Source of the DNA: a virus
Lineage: Duplodnaviria; Heunggongvirae; Uroviricota; Caudoviricetes
Reading direction: 5' to 3' (one strand)
Virus record (IMG/VR): IMGVR_UViG_2703718798_000006
DNA length: 8,876 bases
A program made the translations under genes and the position numbers. Positions 117 through 7,692 of this stretch are shown here, in pieces (within the stretch, counting starts at the first letter, position 1; every line of letters begins with the position of its first letter). Below the pieces are notes generated by a model. That model had not been told where the DNA came from. It saw only the letters and a list, made by a program, of their open reading frames with translations, and ran no database searches.

Positions 117-1109
117 CTAGTCAATGGACAGTTTATGGACACTATCAGCCAGCGGATTAAAGCTAATCGCATCCTGTAAAAAGTCCGGTGAAAAATGCGC
201 ATACGTCATCGTTTGTTGAATCGTGGCGTGCCCAAGGATTCGCTGTAACGTAACGATATTTCCGCCGTTCATCATGAAATGCGTGGCGAACGTGTGACGC
301 ATAACGTGAGTCGCCTGACCTTTGGGTAAATCCGGTTTCACCTCCTGAAGGATATCCCGAAAACGGATGTAATCAGCCTGGTACAATAGCCCGGTTTTTC
401 GGGTTTTTATCAACGAAAGCACCGTATCAGAAACAGGAACCGCGCGGGATTTTCCATTCTTTGTGTTAAAGAACATTACGCGGTTACCAACGATATGCTC
501 ACCACGTAAGCCAGCTGCTTCCCCCCACCTTGCGCCAGTGGAAAGACACAGAACAGCAACACGACGCGCATCCCCCTCGAGTCGTTCAAGCAGCCGATCA
601 ATCTCATCATCTGAAAGAAAGGCCATTTCTGTATTCCTGACCTTGAGCTTACGTATTCCACGCACCGGGTTTTCGTTATGGAAAACCTCCGCATCAATCA
701 GCGAGGTAAACATTGCAGACAAGGCGCACAAATCACGATTAACACTGGAGGGCATTAATCCGGCCTGTAATTTGTCTGAACGATACCCGAGCATAAACTT
801 TCGCGTCATCTCACTGGCGCGGGGGTCCCTCATCTCACGGTTTATTTTTTCCAGCCTGACCCTGTAAGTATCCCCGTAAGGCTGATTCCGGCCATCAAGC
901 ACCCACCAGGCATCTATCAGTTCGGATAACCGACGCTGATCAGCTGGCTTGGCCTGCCACGGTTTATCGTGGAAATTCTGCAAAACATACCTTTCAAACT
1001 CCTGTGCCTTTGACTTCAGGGTAAAAATCTTACGGATCCGCTTTCCTTCCGTCCCTTGCGGTCTTACATCAACCTTATAACGCCCGTCTTTGAGTTGCTT
1101 AATCGACAT
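117..1109 (-). CDS. int: Tyrosine site-specific integrase (P2/186 Int family), 330 aa from ATG at 1109
   Basis: ORF 117..1124 opens with TTG; first ATG at 1109 (MSIKQLKDGRY...) is preceded by GGAGGGG. Length ~P2 Int (337 aa). C-terminal catalytic region has H-x-x-R (VMRHTFATH) and GHATIQQTMTYAH with terminal Tyr, typical of tyrosine recombinases. Confidence 0.9.
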   Translation of the reverse strand: MSIKQLKDGRYKVDVRPQGTEGKRIRKIFTLKSKAQEFERYVLQNFHDKPWQAKPADQRRLSELIDAWWVLDGRNQPYGDTYRVRLEKINREMRDPRASEMTRKFMLGYRSDKLQAGLMPSSVNRDLCALSAMFTSLIDAEVFHNENPVRGIRKLKVRNTEMAFLSDDEIDRLLERLEGDARRVAVLCLSTGARWGEAAGLRGEHIVGNRVMFFNTKNGKSRAVPVSDTVLSLIKTRKTGLLYQADYIRFRDILQEVKPDLPKGQATHVMRHTFATHFMMNGGNIVTLQRILGHATIQQTMTYAHFSPDFLQDAISFNPLADSVHKLSID

Positions 1110-1178: not shown

Positions 1179-1520
1179 TTAGCCAGCATTGCGACGAGAT
1201 CGGGGTGATTTTTGGGTAATGCCGATTGAAACCTGATCGCCCTCCGACTGAATGGAGCCATCAAGAGAGAGAGCCGGGGCAACCTGCCCGGCAGCGGGAA
1301 ATGTTTTGTCGTGAAGTATCCACATAGTGTATTTTTCGAATCGCTCGACTTGGATTACTTTTTCTACAACCTCAATTCGCGCAGGTTTATATCCAGACTC
1401 ATAATTTCCTATAGTTCCTACAGAAACTCCCGTTACTTGCGAAAACTGAGATTGTGTAAGGTTTTCCGCGTTTCTGATTGCCTTTAGTTTTTTGGCGTAA
1501 TCTCTTGACATGTTCACCAT
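1179..1520 (-). CDS. Immunity repressor, P2 C-type (short HTH repressor); start ATG at 1520 (or 1511)
   Basis: ORF 1179..1661; in-frame ATGs at 1520 and 1511, SD GAGGA upstream of 1520. Sequence ...LTQSQFSQVTGVSVGTIGNYESG...FEKYTMWIL...GQVAPAL... follows the pattern I recall for P2 C (YESG, KYT-W, Q-APAL). Sits just upstream of int on the same strand, as in P2. Confidence 0.75.
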   Translation of the reverse strand: MVNMSRDYAKKLKAIRNAENLTQSQFSQVTGVSVGTIGNYESGYKPARIEVVEKVIQVERFEKYTMWILHDKTFPAAGQVAPALSLDGSIQSEGDQVSIGITQKSPRSRRNAG

Positions 1521-1534
1521 ACGATGAGTATCCT
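1505..1534 (+). promoter_or_regulatory. Putative rightward early promoter (Pe-like): -35 TTGACA (1505-1510), 18-bp spacer, -10 TATCCT (1529-1534)
   Basis: Perfect -35 hexamer and a TA...T -10 at acceptable spacing, pointing toward the cox-like gene; overlaps the repressor start, consistent with face-to-face promoter architecture in P2/186 switches. Confidence 0.5.
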
Positions 1535-1542
1535 CTATTCGA

Positions 1543-1562
1543 ACTTCACCACAGGGTGAAGT
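1543..1562. promoter_or_regulatory. Candidate operator: perfect 20-bp palindrome ACTTCACC-ACAG-GGTGAAGT
   Basis: 8-bp perfect inverted arms with 4-bp spacer, at the predicted Pe transcription start between the divergent repressor and cox-like genes. Confidence 0.4.
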
Positions 1563-1623
1563 AAACAAATCAAAACAAACCTTCATGATGCGCGACAAGC
1601 GCACCAACGCAAGAGGATAGCAA

Positions 1624-2232: not shown

Positions 2233-2688
2233 CTACCAGGCTGATGGATGATCATCATCAATATCAAACACATTTCTGTAAAAACGAGAATGTTGCAAGG
2301 GATGAATAAGCGACCCCCAACAATCATAAATATCAGCCAGTTCGAACACATCGTATGAGAGATGTTGAGCAAACGATTCGGCACCTTCAAAAGACTCAAA
2401 CACCTCATCATACAAGTGAATGTTTTCAGGATACGAAAGTGACAAGCAAAAACCAGACGTAGATTCCGTAACCAAGAAGACAAGGTGATATTTATCATTC
2501 ACCAGTGACTGAGCACATTTTTTTACAGAGCGAAGAATCACAGGGGAACGCGCGCCAATACGAAAGAGTTCTGCATGAGCACGGGCATCAACAAAACTGT
2601 GAAACCCCTCACTTCTTGCAAGCTCACGTTCGGCAGCACGCAAAACCCAAAACCACCGCCCAGATTCGGATGTAAGGATAATTTTCAT
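2233..2688 (-). CDS. Hypothetical protein, 151 aa, antisense to the early operon
   Basis: Only long ORF across 2233..2688; plus strand has no ORF >=60 aa from 2252 to 2574. Protein-like alternating beta/alpha pattern (MKIILTSESG..., PVILRSV..., HLVFLVTE...) with acidic C-terminus. ATG at 2688 has a weak SD. Confidence 0.45.
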   Translation of the reverse strand: MKIILTSESGRWFWVLRAAERELARSEGFHSFVDARAHAELFRIGARSPVILRSVKKCAQSLVNDKYHLVFLVTESTSGFCLSLSYPENIHLYDEVFESFEGAESFAQHLSYDVFELADIYDCWGSLIHPLQHSRFYRNVFDIDDDHPSAW

Positions 2689-4046: not shown

Positions 4047-4280
4047 ATGAGAACAGCCGAATCACCCGGCAGAGAAATAACCGCCAGACCAGCTAACCAT
4101 CATGCGCATATCAGCATGGCCGCAAGAAAAGCCGAGCGTGCACATATCTGCGAATTACTGCGCGAGCTGACCGAGACAGCGAAAGAAAAACACACCTCCC
4201 CGCTGGAAACCTGTTCAGTCATTGAACGACTGATTGCAATGCTCACCAGCCAGGACGAACCGAAGGAGCCCGTACAATGA
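4047..4280 (+). CDS. Hypothetical protein, 77 aa (ORF opens at 4005)
   Basis: ATG 4047 preceded by AGGAG (4035-4039) at 7-nt spacing; the upstream ATG 4005 lies inside a hairpin with no SD. Stop overlaps the exonuclease start (ATGA). Confidence 0.55.
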   Translation: MRTAESPGREITARPANHHAHISMAARKAERAHICELLRELTETAKEKHTSPLETCSVIERLIAMLTSQDEPKEPVQ

Positions 4281-4858
4281 ACCATCTCATGATTGACACC
4301 GAAACACTGGGTAACGGACCGGACGCAGTCATATTCGCGATCGGCGCGGTGTTTTTCGACCCGTTCACCGGAAAACTGGGCAAGCAGTTTGAGAAATTCA
4401 TCGACCCGGTGGATTCAGAACGCAACGGCGGAACCGTCAGTGCAACAACCGCTGTATGGTGGGCCGGACAATCCGTGGAGGCCAGGGCCTGCCTGCGCAA
4501 CGCAGAGGGAACAGAGCTGGCAGCAGTGACCGAATTTCTGGCGTTCATTTCACGCAATATGCATGACGAAAGCCCGGGCAATTCACTGACCATATGGTGC
4601 AAGGGCGCATCCTTCGATTTCCCAATCCTGAGATCCGCCATAAAGCGAACAACCGGAGAAAAAAGTATTCCGTGGTGTTACTGGGACGAGCGCTGTATGC
4701 GTCCGCTTATCGCCATGGCTGAATCAACCGGCTGGAGAATGCCAGGCCGATCAGGAAAAGAGGCTATTGCTCACACTGCACTGGGCGATGCCATTTACCA
4801 GGCAAAGGTCGTGTCAGAAATCTGGCAGCGCTTCACAACGCCATTCCTGAACATATGA
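4277..4858 (+). CDS. DEDDh-type (DnaQ-like) 3'-5' exonuclease, 193 aa
   Basis: SD AAGGAG (4263-4268). Exo I motif MIDTETLG (Asp/Glu), central ...GASFDFPIL..., Exo III motif HTALGDAIYQ (His-x4-Asp), in the order expected for DEDDh exonucleases. Confidence 0.8.
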   Translation: MNHLMIDTETLGNGPDAVIFAIGAVFFDPFTGKLGKQFEKFIDPVDSERNGGTVSATTAVWWAGQSVEARACLRNAEGTELAAVTEFLAFISRNMHDESPGNSLTIWCKGASFDFPILRSAIKRTTGEKSIPWCYWDERCMRPLIAMAESTGWRMPGRSGKEAIAHTALGDAIYQAKVVSEIWQRFTTPFLNI

Positions 4859-5090: not shown

Positions 5091-6071
5091 ATGAGCAAAG
5101 AACTGTTATCCGGCACACCGCTGAAATGGGTGGGTGGCAAAAGCCGCATCATGAACACACTGAAGGTGCATCTGCCAGAAGCTGACTGCCTGGTTGAACC
5201 GTTCGTGGGTGGCGCATCGGTATTCATGAACACCAGTTACAAACGCTACATCCTGGGTGATTCCAATGGTGCGCTGATTAATTTCTGGCGGGCAGCACGG
5301 GACAACACAGACAGTCTGATCGACGAGGCGAAAACCCTGTTCCTGAACCACAACAACAGGGGTGACTATCTCATCATTCGCGAAACCTTTAACGCAGAGA
5401 ATCATGCCTTCCTGAGTAGCAGAACGGGAATAAGCGACCGCCGTGAACTGCGACTGGCCGCCATGTTTTTGTACCTCAACCGGCACTGTTTTAATGGCCT
5501 GTACCGGGTGAACGGAAAAGGCGATTTTAACGTGCCTTTCGGCTGCTACCGCAAGCCCTATTTCCCTGAGCATGAAATCCGCGCATTTGCAGACAAGGCA
5601 AACAGCACCCGAACGCTGCTTATCCACGCAGATTTTAAGGATACGCTGAACTCTGCCAGTCACCTGTTCGGCATGGGCAACACGCTTTGCGTGTACTGCG
5701 ATCCCCCTTACCTGCAATTCAGTGGCCGGGACAATTTCACCGCCTACGGAAAACCATTCGATGAACACGAGCACGTTCGCCTGAGGGCAGCACTTGACCG
5801 CCTTTCGCAGGAAACGGGCGGCATGACCAGCATCACCATCTCCAATTCCGACACACCGGAAACCAGACGCATTTATCAGGGTTACCGGATGAACTGCATA
5901 CAGGCACCACGCAGCGTTGGCGCAAGAACCCGCGAACCAGCACCGGAAGTTATCGCCACCCTGAGACAGTGCGACGCCTGCGGTCACTATGGCGGTGGCT
6001 ACTGCCCGGACTGCGGACCGGTAACGGGAGATGCAACTTACTGCGTGATGTTTACCCCTGCCAGTACGTGA
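5091..6071 (+). CDS. dam: Dam-family N6-adenine DNA methyltransferase with C-terminal Cys4 extension, 326 aa
   Basis: SD AGAGG at 7-nt spacing. N-terminal LKWVGGK and AdoMet motif FVGGASVF (res 38-45), catalytic DPPY (res 204-207). C-terminal CDACGHYGGGYCPDCG (CxxC-x7-CxxC, nt 5970..6014) not present in canonical Dam as I recall it. GATC specificity not verifiable here. Confidence 0.9.
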   Translation: MSKELLSGTPLKWVGGKSRIMNTLKVHLPEADCLVEPFVGGASVFMNTSYKRYILGDSNGALINFWRAARDNTDSLIDEAKTLFLNHNNRGDYLIIRETFNAENHAFLSSRTGISDRRELRLAAMFLYLNRHCFNGLYRVNGKGDFNVPFGCYRKPYFPEHEIRAFADKANSTRTLLIHADFKDTLNSASHLFGMGNTLCVYCDPPYLQFSGRDNFTAYGKPFDEHEHVRLRAALDRLSQETGGMTSITISNSDTPETRRIYQGYRMNCIQAPRSVGARTREPAPEVIATLRQCDACGHYGGGYCPDCGPVTGDATYCVMFTPAST

Positions 6072-6343: not shown

Positions 6344-6558
6344 TCCAGGAGTCAACCGTCATCCGGTTCACAGCCAACGGCCGCCAGTACGAAGTCGACG
6401 AAAGCCTGATTGACCAGGGCATGACACGCCAGGATTCACGCAATCCTGAGATGCATCACATCCGCCTTATCAACGGTTCTCACTTCTGCGCCACGAACAT
6501 GGAAGAAGTACGCGTGCTGACAGCAACACGCAACGCGGGAGGTAAAGCATGGCCGTGA
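6340..6558 (+). CDS. Hypothetical protein, 72 aa
   Basis: Translationally coupled to the upstream gene; AAGGGG upstream; 3' end overlaps the next gene by 10 nt. Confidence 0.6.
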   Translation: MIQESTVIRFTANGRQYEVDESLIDQGMTRQDSRNPEMHHIRLINGSHFCATNMEEVRVLTATRNAGGKAWP

Positions 6559-6899
6559 TTTATATCGCCGGTCCCATGACCGGATACAAAGACGACAACA
6601 GACTGGAGTTTTGCCTGGCGGACCTGAAGCTTAGGTACGCCGGAAACATTGTTCTTAATCCTGCCGTACTGCCTGACGGATTAAGCCAGCAGCAGTACAT
6701 GAGCATTTGTATTCCGATGCTCATGTGTGCCGATGCCATTTACTTACTGGATGGATGGGAAGAGTCCGCTGGCGCACGGGCTGAGTACGCAATGGCACTC
6801 AAGCTGAACATGCCGGTGTCATTCCCGGAAAATCGGGCGGCCGGCGAAACTGTCGCACAGCTGCTTGGCAAATCAAAAGCCGCACAGGCGACTGAGTAA
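6549..6899 (+). CDS. Nucleoside 2-deoxyribosyltransferase-like (DUF4406-type) protein, 116 aa
   Basis: SD GGGAGG upstream. N-terminal VIYIAGPMTG and later ...DAIYLLDGWEESAGARAEYAMA... match the motif pattern I associate with the NDT-like/DUF4406 fold. Confidence 0.65.
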   Translation: MAVIYIAGPMTGYKDDNRLEFCLADLKLRYAGNIVLNPAVLPDGLSQQQYMSICIPMLMCADAIYLLDGWEESAGARAEYAMALKLNMPVSFPENRAAGETVAQLLGKSKAAQATE

Positions 6900-7337: not shown

Positions 7338-7500
7338 CAGAAACACCCCGCGTATGCAGACAATCACCAGTTGCCAGGTGATATTAATTCGCCACATTCT
7401 AACCACATCAGCACGCAACACAAAAACCGCTTGCCAGCGTTCGCCTGGTCGGGTTACAGTTTTCCCGCACCTCATAAAACGGGTGCCGGGATTGCAACCC

Positions 7501-7542
7501 CCGCTGACTACACAAGCGCACAACCGCGCCAGCGGTTTTTTT
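7501..7542 (+). terminator. Strong Rho-independent terminator T1: stem CCGCTG/CAGCGG with internal GCGC/GCGC sub-stem, then T7
   Basis: 6-bp GC-rich outer stem (7501-7506 / 7530-7535) directly followed by TTTTTTT (7536-7542); 4-bp inner stem 7516-7519 / 7526-7529. Confidence 0.6.
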
Positions 7543-7582
7543 GTGCGTACCGCATCGTCACATCTTTTTCGCGTCAGAATTA

Positions 7583-7660
7583 TGGTGGGGCGTACAGGGC
7601 CGACTTCGGTCGGGCCGGGGTCTTGTGTAGCCGGTGGTTGCAACCCTGTACGTCTCACCA
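7583..7660 (+). ncRNA. Candidate structured RNA (sRNA or cis-acting leader/antiterminator) in the 17-bp stem fold
   Basis: 7583-7599 pairs with 7644-7660 over 17 bp including two G-U wobbles (7590-7653, 7588-7655), which are valid only in plus-strand RNA. Enclosed hairpin 7600-7604/7609-7613 has loop TTCG with C-G closing pair (cUUCGg). ORF-free region. Confidence 0.45.
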
Positions 7661-7692
7661 CCCAGAATTGCAACCTCTGGATGGTGAGTTTT
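7654..7692 (+). terminator. Putative intrinsic terminator T2: 7-bp + 5-bp stem (one mismatch), 9-nt loop, T4 tail; mutually exclusive with the 17-bp stem
   Basis: CTCACCA(7654-7660)/TGGTGAG(7682-7688) and CCAGA(7662-7666)/TCTGG(7676-7680), followed by TTTT (7689-7692). The 5' arm is also the 3' arm of the long stem at 7583-7660. Confidence 0.45.

Follow-up and report, generated by a model that had tools for sequence, protein, structure and literature searches.

A perfect dyad and its upstream copy as probable operators of a P2 C-type repressor in a P2-like Escherichia coli prophage

The immunity switch and its described relatives

The C repressor of bacteriophage P2 is a textbook oddity, a symmetric dimer that is said to read non-palindromic direct repeats, and its family has been described as binders of such repeats in papers that assign no operators to the more recent E. 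coli immunity classes VIII–X (PMC2995052, PMC3448106). In phages WPhi and P2 two repeats, 34 bp and 22 bp apart, respectively, flank the -10 hexamer of the early promoter Pe (PMC1904268, PMC2995052), and repression in P2, WPhi and P2 Hy dis needs both of them (PMC1904268). The crystal structure of P2 C showed a symmetric dimer built for two consecutive major grooves, and its authors proposed that one helix reads the repeat while the other binds less specifically (PMC2995052). Here, a palindrome lying between a C-type repressor gene and a cox-like gene was studied in a stretch of 8,876 nucleotides (termed the window) from the IMG/VR virus record IMGVR_UViG_2703718798_000006, and the comparison with its relatives suggests that close relatives of P2 C keep the promoter geometry with a perfect dyad at the downstream site.

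Positions 1100–2200 of the window were 100% identical to the chromosome of E. coli STEC17-183. Similarity of 77–99% was found to prophages of several hundred further E. coli genomes and to three records of Peduoviridae phages, among them vB_EcoM-569R5 and a P88-like phage. The int gene (117–1109, minus strand) encodes a P2-type tyrosine integrase (Pfam Int_N and Phage_integrase; phrog_1). It is followed on the same strand by the gene for a 113-residue immunity repressor of the P2 C family with a helix-turn-helix domain (1179–1520; Pfam HTH_3; phrog_147, 3e-28) and, after a spacer of 103 bp, by a gene on the plus strand (1624–2148) that encodes a Cox-like protein of 174 residues and is the first of the early operon. 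The order int, C and then cox on the opposite strand is the same in annotated P2 and WPhi, and a spacer of ~100–120 bp is expected of a P2-type switch. The identities of the repressor and Cox-type genes therefore place the palindrome in the C–cox spacer of a P2-type switch, and positions 1505–1623 constitute the lysis/lysogeny switch of an E. coli prophage of the P2-like (Peduoviridae) kind. An earlier reading of this DNA from its letters alone (the original prediction) had proposed a P2-type immunity switch at this place, and the identification of all three genes bears it out.

The repressor aligned with P2 C (2XCJ/2L49) over essentially the whole fold (phmmer E = 6.8e-15, residues 4–89 on 1–86) and kept the C-family motifs FxKY..W and GQIAPAL; no specific NCBIfam family was found for either the repressor or the Cox-like protein. 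By tblastn, its closest characterised relative was WPhi C, with 47% identity, and it was 36% identical to P2 C. P2 and the window share the gene order, the fold family of the repressor, a Pe -35 hexamer placed on the C start and operators, predicted ones in the window, flanking the -10 hexamer, but the half-sites of P2 are non-palindromic, 8 bp long and repeated at 22 bp. Phage 186 also has convergent promoters and a Cox/Apl-type lytic repressor, and its CI protein binds inverted repeats (PMC1904268). Note, however, that 186 CI is a two-domain protein of ~190 residues, of another origin, that acts with the help of cII and makes use of distal sites (PMC3448106), whereas the repressor studied here is a P2 C homologue of 113 residues and no cII-like gene follows cox in the window.

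Two dyads around the rightward promoter

The sequence TTGACA-N18-TATCCT on the plus strand (-35 at 1505–1510, -10 at 1529–1534) matches the promoter consensus at 10 of 12 positions and is the best promoter-like site in 1100–2300. A match of at least 10/12 on a given strand arises in 0.4% of random 119-bp sequences with the first-order composition of the window, and these random sequences also underlie the other chance figures per 119 bp. The -35 hexamer overlaps the repressor-frame ATG at 1511–1509 and was invariant in 12 variants of the window's own switch class (class A), while TA[T/A][C/A/T]CT was present at the same 18-nt spacing in all the classes that were compared. The -35 stands at -119 from the cox ATG, compared with -121 in annotated P2, where the -35 likewise overlaps the C start codon. 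The original prediction had named this rightward promoter, and it was confirmed as present, conserved in position across all relatives and coincident with the annotated Pe of P2. It is predicted to be a strong promoter in the place of P2 Pe, with a start at about 1541–1543 as judged from the usual 7-nt distance to the -10.

The palindrome comprises two arms, ACTTCACC (1543–1550) and GGTGAAGT (1555–1562), that are complementary at 8 of 8 positions and are separated by 4 nt. It had been described as a perfect palindrome of 20 bp; the 8-nt arms are indeed perfect, but the centre, ACAG, is not self-complementary, and the element is better written as an 8+4+8 dyad. Only 7+7 of these positions (CTTCACC and GGTGAAG, 1544–1561) are kept in relatives. 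The dyad occupies positions ~+1 to +20 of Pe, and its placement at the predicted rightward start stands as first proposed; in the comparisons set out below it shows the behaviour of a dyad that binds protein. By chance, 0.9% of 119-bp sequences are expected to hold a perfect inverted repeat whose arms measure at least 8 nt.

A third copy of the half-site, missed by the original prediction, is present upstream. The sequence GTTCACCA (1512–1519) lies 32 bp before CTTCACCA (1544–1551), and a repeat finder extended the match to 15 nt (TTCACCATACGATGA versus TTCACCACAGGGTGA, 80% identical at the 32-bp spacing), with TTCACCA beginning at 1513 and at 1545. The combination of an inverted repeat of at least 7 nt and a third copy of its core has a chance of 0.24% per 119 bp. 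The upstream unit can be written as a degenerate dyad, GTTCACC-ATAC-GATGAGT (1512–1529; predicted operator O1), which is a direct repeat of the downstream unit, CTTCACC-ACAG-GGTGAAG (1544–1561; predicted operator O2). With O1 in the spacer between -35 and -10 and O2 downstream, the pair encloses the -10 hexamer of Pe. One arm of O1 is perfect and its right arm matches at 4/7 positions; in the relatives L018 and L020 the right arm is GGTGAGT, and O1 is more palindromic.

The arrangement described for P2-type operators, two direct repeats 22–34 bp apart that flank the -10 or the -35 of Pe, was thus found here at 32 bp. It had been suggested that an inverted repeat in this place would contrast with the direct repeats bound by P2 C. 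That contrast is a false one, since the direct-repeat partner of the palindrome sits 32 bp upstream and what is repeated directly is a dyad; the palindrome itself appears to be the better-preserved member of two tandem dyads. Taken together with the conservation of its arms, its co-variation with the repressor and its linkage to the C gene, all described below, the palindrome is probably operator O2 of a two-dyad C operator that would hold two repressor dimers 32 bp apart. Distal operators were sought as CTTCACC-N4-GGTGAAG with up to three mismatches, which has a single occurrence in the 8.9 kb of the window, and a further TTCACCA at 2498 was not above chance. No intrinsic terminator was found at the palindrome.

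Conservation, co-variation and competing explanations

The comparison of switch regions drew on 32 IMG/VR contigs together with phage records and several E. coli genomes. At least five switch classes share one layout, consisting of TTGACA, a half-site copy in the spacer, TA[T/A]xCT at 18 nt and an inverted repeat, and in all classes O1 and O2 are spaced by 32–33 bp and O2 starts at +36 to +40 from the -35. An upstream copy equivalent to O1 was found in every class, and the sequences are unrelated: the half-site is TTCACC in class A, AGATAACC in class B, AGATACTC in class C, ATCCTC in class D and ATGTG in ESSI2_ev239.

The layout was also sought in 79 non-identical C-type switch regions, taken from one genome per species, and in shuffles of them. 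A perfect inverted repeat with arms of at least 7 nt was present in 35% of these switches and in 11% of shuffles, and an inverted repeat of at least 6 nt together with a third copy of its core 20–45 bp away was present in 22% and 2.8%, respectively, an eightfold difference. The third copy lay upstream of the palindrome in 15 of 17 such cases. Dyad symmetry in the repeat units was also seen in PhiR44_2, ENT4, phiT5282H, Chuche, L-413C and a Pseudomonas phiCTX-like phage, and exact matching showed none in the repeat units of P2 or WPhi. The non-palindromic half-sites stressed for P2 C (PMC2995052) do not describe O2, which is a perfect 7+4+7 (8+4+8) dyad; given the perfect dyads of the window and of 22% of the 79 family switches surveyed, this feature therefore characterises P2 and WPhi and not the family as a whole. 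An inverted-repeat operator beside a P2 C-like repressor had been thought notable in the original prediction, but about one-fifth of C-type switches share the layout, so it is less exceptional than it seemed. It is a common design in the family that is little described, and no new kind of system is revealed. No description of a palindrome with a third copy was found in the literature, of which Karlsson et al. 2006 (immunity classes I–VII) was not covered.

It could be that the palindrome alone is the operator, a single dyad for one dimer, and that the upstream TTCACC copy is incidental or otherwise constrained. O2 is the only perfect dyad of the two, and O1 has its poor right arm and overlaps both the first codons of the repressor and the Pe spacer, as such a reading would have it. 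It does not explain, however, why a copy recurs at 32–33 bp in every class despite the unrelated sequences, why it lies upstream in nearly all of the cases with three copies, why the combination is enriched eightfold over shuffles, or why repression depends on the two repeats together in P2, WPhi and P2 Hy dis (PMC1904268), and it is considered unlikely.

The half-sites change together with the recognition helix of the repressor. Helix 3 of P2 C spans Tyr31 to Ser39 (PMC2995052), and mapping from that structure places the recognition helix of the window repressor at residues 34–42, VGTIGNYES. The corresponding sequences are LATIRNYES in class B, LAAIRNYES in class C and LGAIRNYET in class D, and LGTVKNYES and YGTLSYYES in the reference phages WPhi and P2. 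Within class A, none of the 14 arm columns of O2 varied among the 12 distinct variants, while all four centre columns did; between the -10 and O2 five of nine columns varied, as did about half of those to the right of O2.

The hybrid sites of classes B and C are a separate observation. The O1 of these classes is a hybrid dyad, AGATAACC-ATTT-GAGTAT, with one arm of the B type and one of the C type, and both O2 arms are of the type of their own class (L019, L021, L040, L042, L038 and L033 versus L001). L042 has the intermediate form AGATAATCG-TAT-GAGTATCT, and in L038 the two arm types are exchanged between O1 and O2. Helix 3 of the class B and class C repressors differs only by Thr to Ala. As read from these arms, the hybrids look like a specificity shift caught in progress.

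WPhi provides a comparison with experimentally defined operators, whereas those of the window are predicted from sequence. In both, the -35 of Pe is TTGACA and abuts the C start, two repeats ~3 helical turns apart flank the -10, and GGTGA stands at +50 to +54 relative to the initial T of TTGACA, within TATTGGTGAC in WPhi O2 and within the right arm of O2 in the window. The defined half-sites of WPhi are a same-strand pair of TATTGGTGAC, and its O2 has no symmetric partner; by contrast, the conserved direct pair of the window is the opposite (left) arm and its O2 is a perfect dyad. Note that WPhi O1 also allows a dyad reading, GTAACC-TATT-GGTGAC, with 5/6 matching positions and again a centre of 4 nt. 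An Arsenophonus prophage, of which helix 3 (LGTLKNYET) is nearly that of WPhi, carries the perfect dyad AGTCACC-ATAA-GGTGACT downstream of TATCCT and TAGTCACC upstream of the dyad, in the promoter spacer. The shared register with WPhi and this dyad indicate that members of the family also use this half-site as an inverted repeat.

These data bear on a second alternative, that the palindrome acts mainly as RNA, forming an 8-bp stem-loop right where the Pe transcript begins, and perhaps in a leftward leader, for mRNA stability or antisense pairing. In the predicted Pe transcript (1541–1630) the palindrome folds into a hairpin at nt 3–22 (-23.9 kcal/mol, z = -3.85), and none of 200 shuffles was as stable; conserved arms around a variable loop would fit such a structure too. 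Left unexplained are the arm copy that every class has upstream, before the start site, the co-variation with the recognition helix and the register shared with a proven DNA half-site in WPhi. In addition, a number of class B and intermediate variants, namely L025, L029, L046, L055, L061 and L063 (AGATAACC...GATTATCT), and also L042, carry a C-A mismatch in the arms that would weaken a stem, and no Rfam family matched in the switch. A role in RNA and a role as operator are not mutually exclusive, but RNA as the main function is rated slightly less likely still than a single dyad.

Natural recombinants separate the two halves of the spacer. In L019, L021 and L040 the Cox protein is 99.4% identical to that of the window and the right half of the spacer is the same, while C is only 71–73% identical and is accompanied by the class C operator. 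Conversely, L007–L014 and L039 have the C of the window (97% identical) with its operator, and their Cox, of the class B type, is 82–83% identical. The recombination junction lies ~10 nt to the right of the palindrome. The O1 and O2 sites therefore travel with the repressor gene and not with cox. The least probable reading, that the palindrome, which as a site between the two genes could in principle block leftward transcription, is bound by the Cox-like protein as lytic repressor of the leftward promoter, is contradicted by this linkage, as the palindrome changes with C under a nearly constant Cox and stays constant when Cox diverges, and Cox/Apl proteins characteristically bind direct repeats one helical turn apart and not dyads (PMC7498355, PMC3936717).

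One interpretation of these data, and the preferred one, is that the repressor, as a symmetric helix-turn-helix dimer, binds two dyads placed 32 bp, or three helical turns, apart around the -10. With 11 bp between the arm centres of O2, a single dimer can reach the two arms at once, and both of its helices would then read the same sequence; this spacing fits a dimer on two consecutive major grooves (PMC2995052). O1 would present one good and one poor arm to a second dimer. Lying on the same face of the DNA, the two dimers would cover the -35/-10 spacer and the start site, switching off Pe, which would otherwise transcribe the Cox-like gene and the early operon, and maintaining lysogeny. The repressor/integrase operon would be read from a leftward promoter, Pc, further to the right, for which the best candidate is TGCTATCCT (1622 to 1614), with the Cox-like protein presumably repressing Pc by way of the cox-side block at 1563–1612. 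The N-terminal domains of P22 c2 and 434 repressor, and C.Esp1396I, which have been cited as structural neighbours of P2 C (PMC2995052), offer a parallel: in each a dyad whose half-sites lie about one turn apart is read by a symmetric helix-turn-helix dimer and, as proposed here, a second dimer occupies a neighbouring, weaker dyad. All of these belong to different protein families and regulatory contexts, and the dyads of C.Esp1396I are spaced by 15 bp and not by the 32 bp found here.

Several points weigh against two tandem operators. The case for them rests entirely on comparison, and we infer binding and its stoichiometry, cooperativity between O1 and O2, the points where transcription begins, which promoter is Pc and where Cox binds. 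O1 overlaps the Pe spacer and, if translation starts at 1520, the first codons of the repressor, and its conservation could partly reflect these other constraints. The characterised half-sites of P2 and WPhi are not palindromic, and the dimers did not assemble into tetramers when DNA was absent (PMC1904263); that O1 and O2 cooperate is thus an assumption. An RNA hairpin at the start of the Pe transcript would fit the arms equally well. Finally, all candidates for Pc are weak by consensus, and the best of them is confounded with the cox ribosome-binding site.

A tentative extension, to which we give not quite an even chance, is that the native operator of P2 C-type repressors is a pair of tandem dyads with one dimer on each, and that the direct repeats of P2 and WPhi are a decayed extreme in which each dyad has lost one arm. 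The clade of the window and about one-fifth of the family may then preserve the intact form, with a perfect O2 and a half-decayed O1. If this were true, it would answer how a symmetric P2 C dimer reads asymmetric DNA, and it would supply natural specificity pairs, for example the helix-3 change from Thr to Ala (LATIRN to LAAIRN) with the half-site change from AGATAACC to AGATACTC. The model, one dimer per dyad and two dyads three turns apart, is simple and testable. Pairs of operator and recognition helix would be useful for understanding specificity and heteroimmunity in prophages that are very common in E. coli, including Shiga toxin-producing and extraintestinal pathogenic strains, and for annotation the layout offers a rule for finding operators in P2-like prophages.

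The leftward promoter, the cox side and neighbouring features

No strong consensus promoter was found on the minus strand, and the perfect TATAAT of P2 Pc, 38 nt upstream of cox, has no equivalent in the window. The extended -10 TGCTATCCT (1614–1622, minus strand) overlaps the cox Shine-Dalgarno sequence, GAGG (1613–1616, 7 nt before the ATG), and would give a start at ~1605–1608. It has a single match in the window, where 0.14 are expected, and in all classes it recurs among the top candidates on the minus strand. The motif AGGATA-N-CA, located before the ATG of cox, was conserved in seven of the eight lineages examined, of which the Cox proteins differ greatly in length, and the conservation of GAGGATA-N-CA goes well beyond the needs of a Shine-Dalgarno sequence. 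Class D, the most divergent of those compared (Cox ~22% identical to that of the window), lacks the TG but has a TTGAGC -35 at 16 nt. The same bases also form the ribosome-binding site of cox, and the two roles cannot be told apart by conservation. The chance that TGCTATCCT is Pc is put a little short of even; this extended -10 is a better candidate than the weak leftward promoter first described. If Pc is TGCTATCCT, the convergent transcripts are predicted to overlap by ~65 nt, with O2 ~54 nt downstream of the Pc start; WPhi likewise has a long overlap, 82 nt, and an O2 distance of 60 nt (PMC1904263, the only source used here for the WPhi Pc coordinates).

Three other leftward candidates were considered. 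TTTACT-N17-TCGAAT, which spans the palindrome (score 7.7), was rejected on its -10 (1537–1542), which varies in most class A variants. TTGTCG-N18-TGtTTTGAT (1598 to 1569, score 8.7) lacks the key A at -11 and its -10 turns into TTTGGT or TTTGGC in relatives; it was kept only as a weak alternative. A WPhi-like -35, TTGACT within the coding region of cox, was rejected: only 11 nt separate it from TATCCT, and most relatives lack it.

The original prediction had also drawn attention to the symmetry of the Shine-Dalgarno sequences of the two genes. The motifs are present, TATCCTCT (1529–1536) and AGAGGATA (1612–1619) being an exact inverted pair of 8 nt, and a second TATCCT is present on the minus strand, although as the complement of 1614–1619 and not of 1613–1618. 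The 8/8 identity, however, is not conserved, class B having TAACCTCT on the repressor side, so the 'symmetric switch' built on it needs no special mechanism. Moreover, the role of AGAGGA as the Shine-Dalgarno sequence of the repressor is itself uncertain. There are two in-frame ATGs, at 1520 (the start assigned by the Prokaryotic Genome Annotation Pipeline in homologues) and at 1511; AGAGGA is 10–11 nt from the first and 19–20 nt from the second, and it is the second ATG that matches the start of P2 C in the alignment. For some of the related lineages, annotation places the equivalent of GAGGAT within coding sequence. The left arm of O1 falls exactly between the two ATGs (codons 2–3; 1509–1520), and in consequence the repressor N terminus is class-specific, MVNM in class A and MVIL in class B.

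The Cox-like protein matched phrog_23196 (1e-120) and phrog_1831 (4e-15), and its Pfam Phage_Cox score of 25.3 bits was below the cutoff of 27.5. Its close RefSeq homologues are named Cox family DNA-binding protein, and no sequence match was found in the Protein Data Bank. At 174 residues it is longer than the Cox of P2 (91 residues) and of WPhi (90 residues), and it fits the 'larger' Cox group 2 (PMC3448106). Two AAACAAA[T/C] repeats, 10 bp apart, lie on the cox side of the palindrome (1563–1580, plus strand); the whole window has three, against 1.4 expected. ACAA recurs in ~10-bp phase up to ~1605, and the relative L063 (IMGVR_UViG_2541047944_000005) adds a third unit of 10 bp. Cox/Apl sites typically contain direct repeats spaced by one helical turn (PMC7498355), and these repeats are candidate binding sites of the Cox-like protein or part of Pc. 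Further to the right, the block CGCGACAAGCGCACCAACGCAA (1591–1612), which includes a small GCGC-GACAA-GCGC hairpin seen in the RNA fold, is identical or nearly so in classes A, B and C although their O1 and O2 sequences differ. The stretch 1563–1612 travels with the cox gene in the recombinants.

Outside the switch, two copies of TGGACA (aaTGGACAgtttaTGGACAct, 127–150) lie inside the 3' end of int; they agree with the P2-type arm-site consensus tgTGGaCa (PMC3448106), and their location is consistent with the position of the P' arm annotated in P2. The early region also has genes that P2 itself lacks. On the opposite strand to cox, 2233–2688 (minus) encodes a 151-residue protein of unknown function (phrog_28512), and on the plus strand there are genes for a DnaQ-like exonuclease (4277–4858), a DNA methyltransferase (5091–6071) and a nucleoside 2-deoxyribosyltransferase-like protein (6549–6899). 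Rfam matches at gathering level were obtained on the plus strand for the Hfq-binding RNA isrK (7467–7542, 59.6 bits) and for C4 antisense RNA (7578–7665, 78 bits). Positions 7467–7665 look like a c4-controlled antirepressor module of the P1/P7 type within a P2-like prophage, and such a module could offer an induction route for a type of repressor that is not cleaved by RecA.

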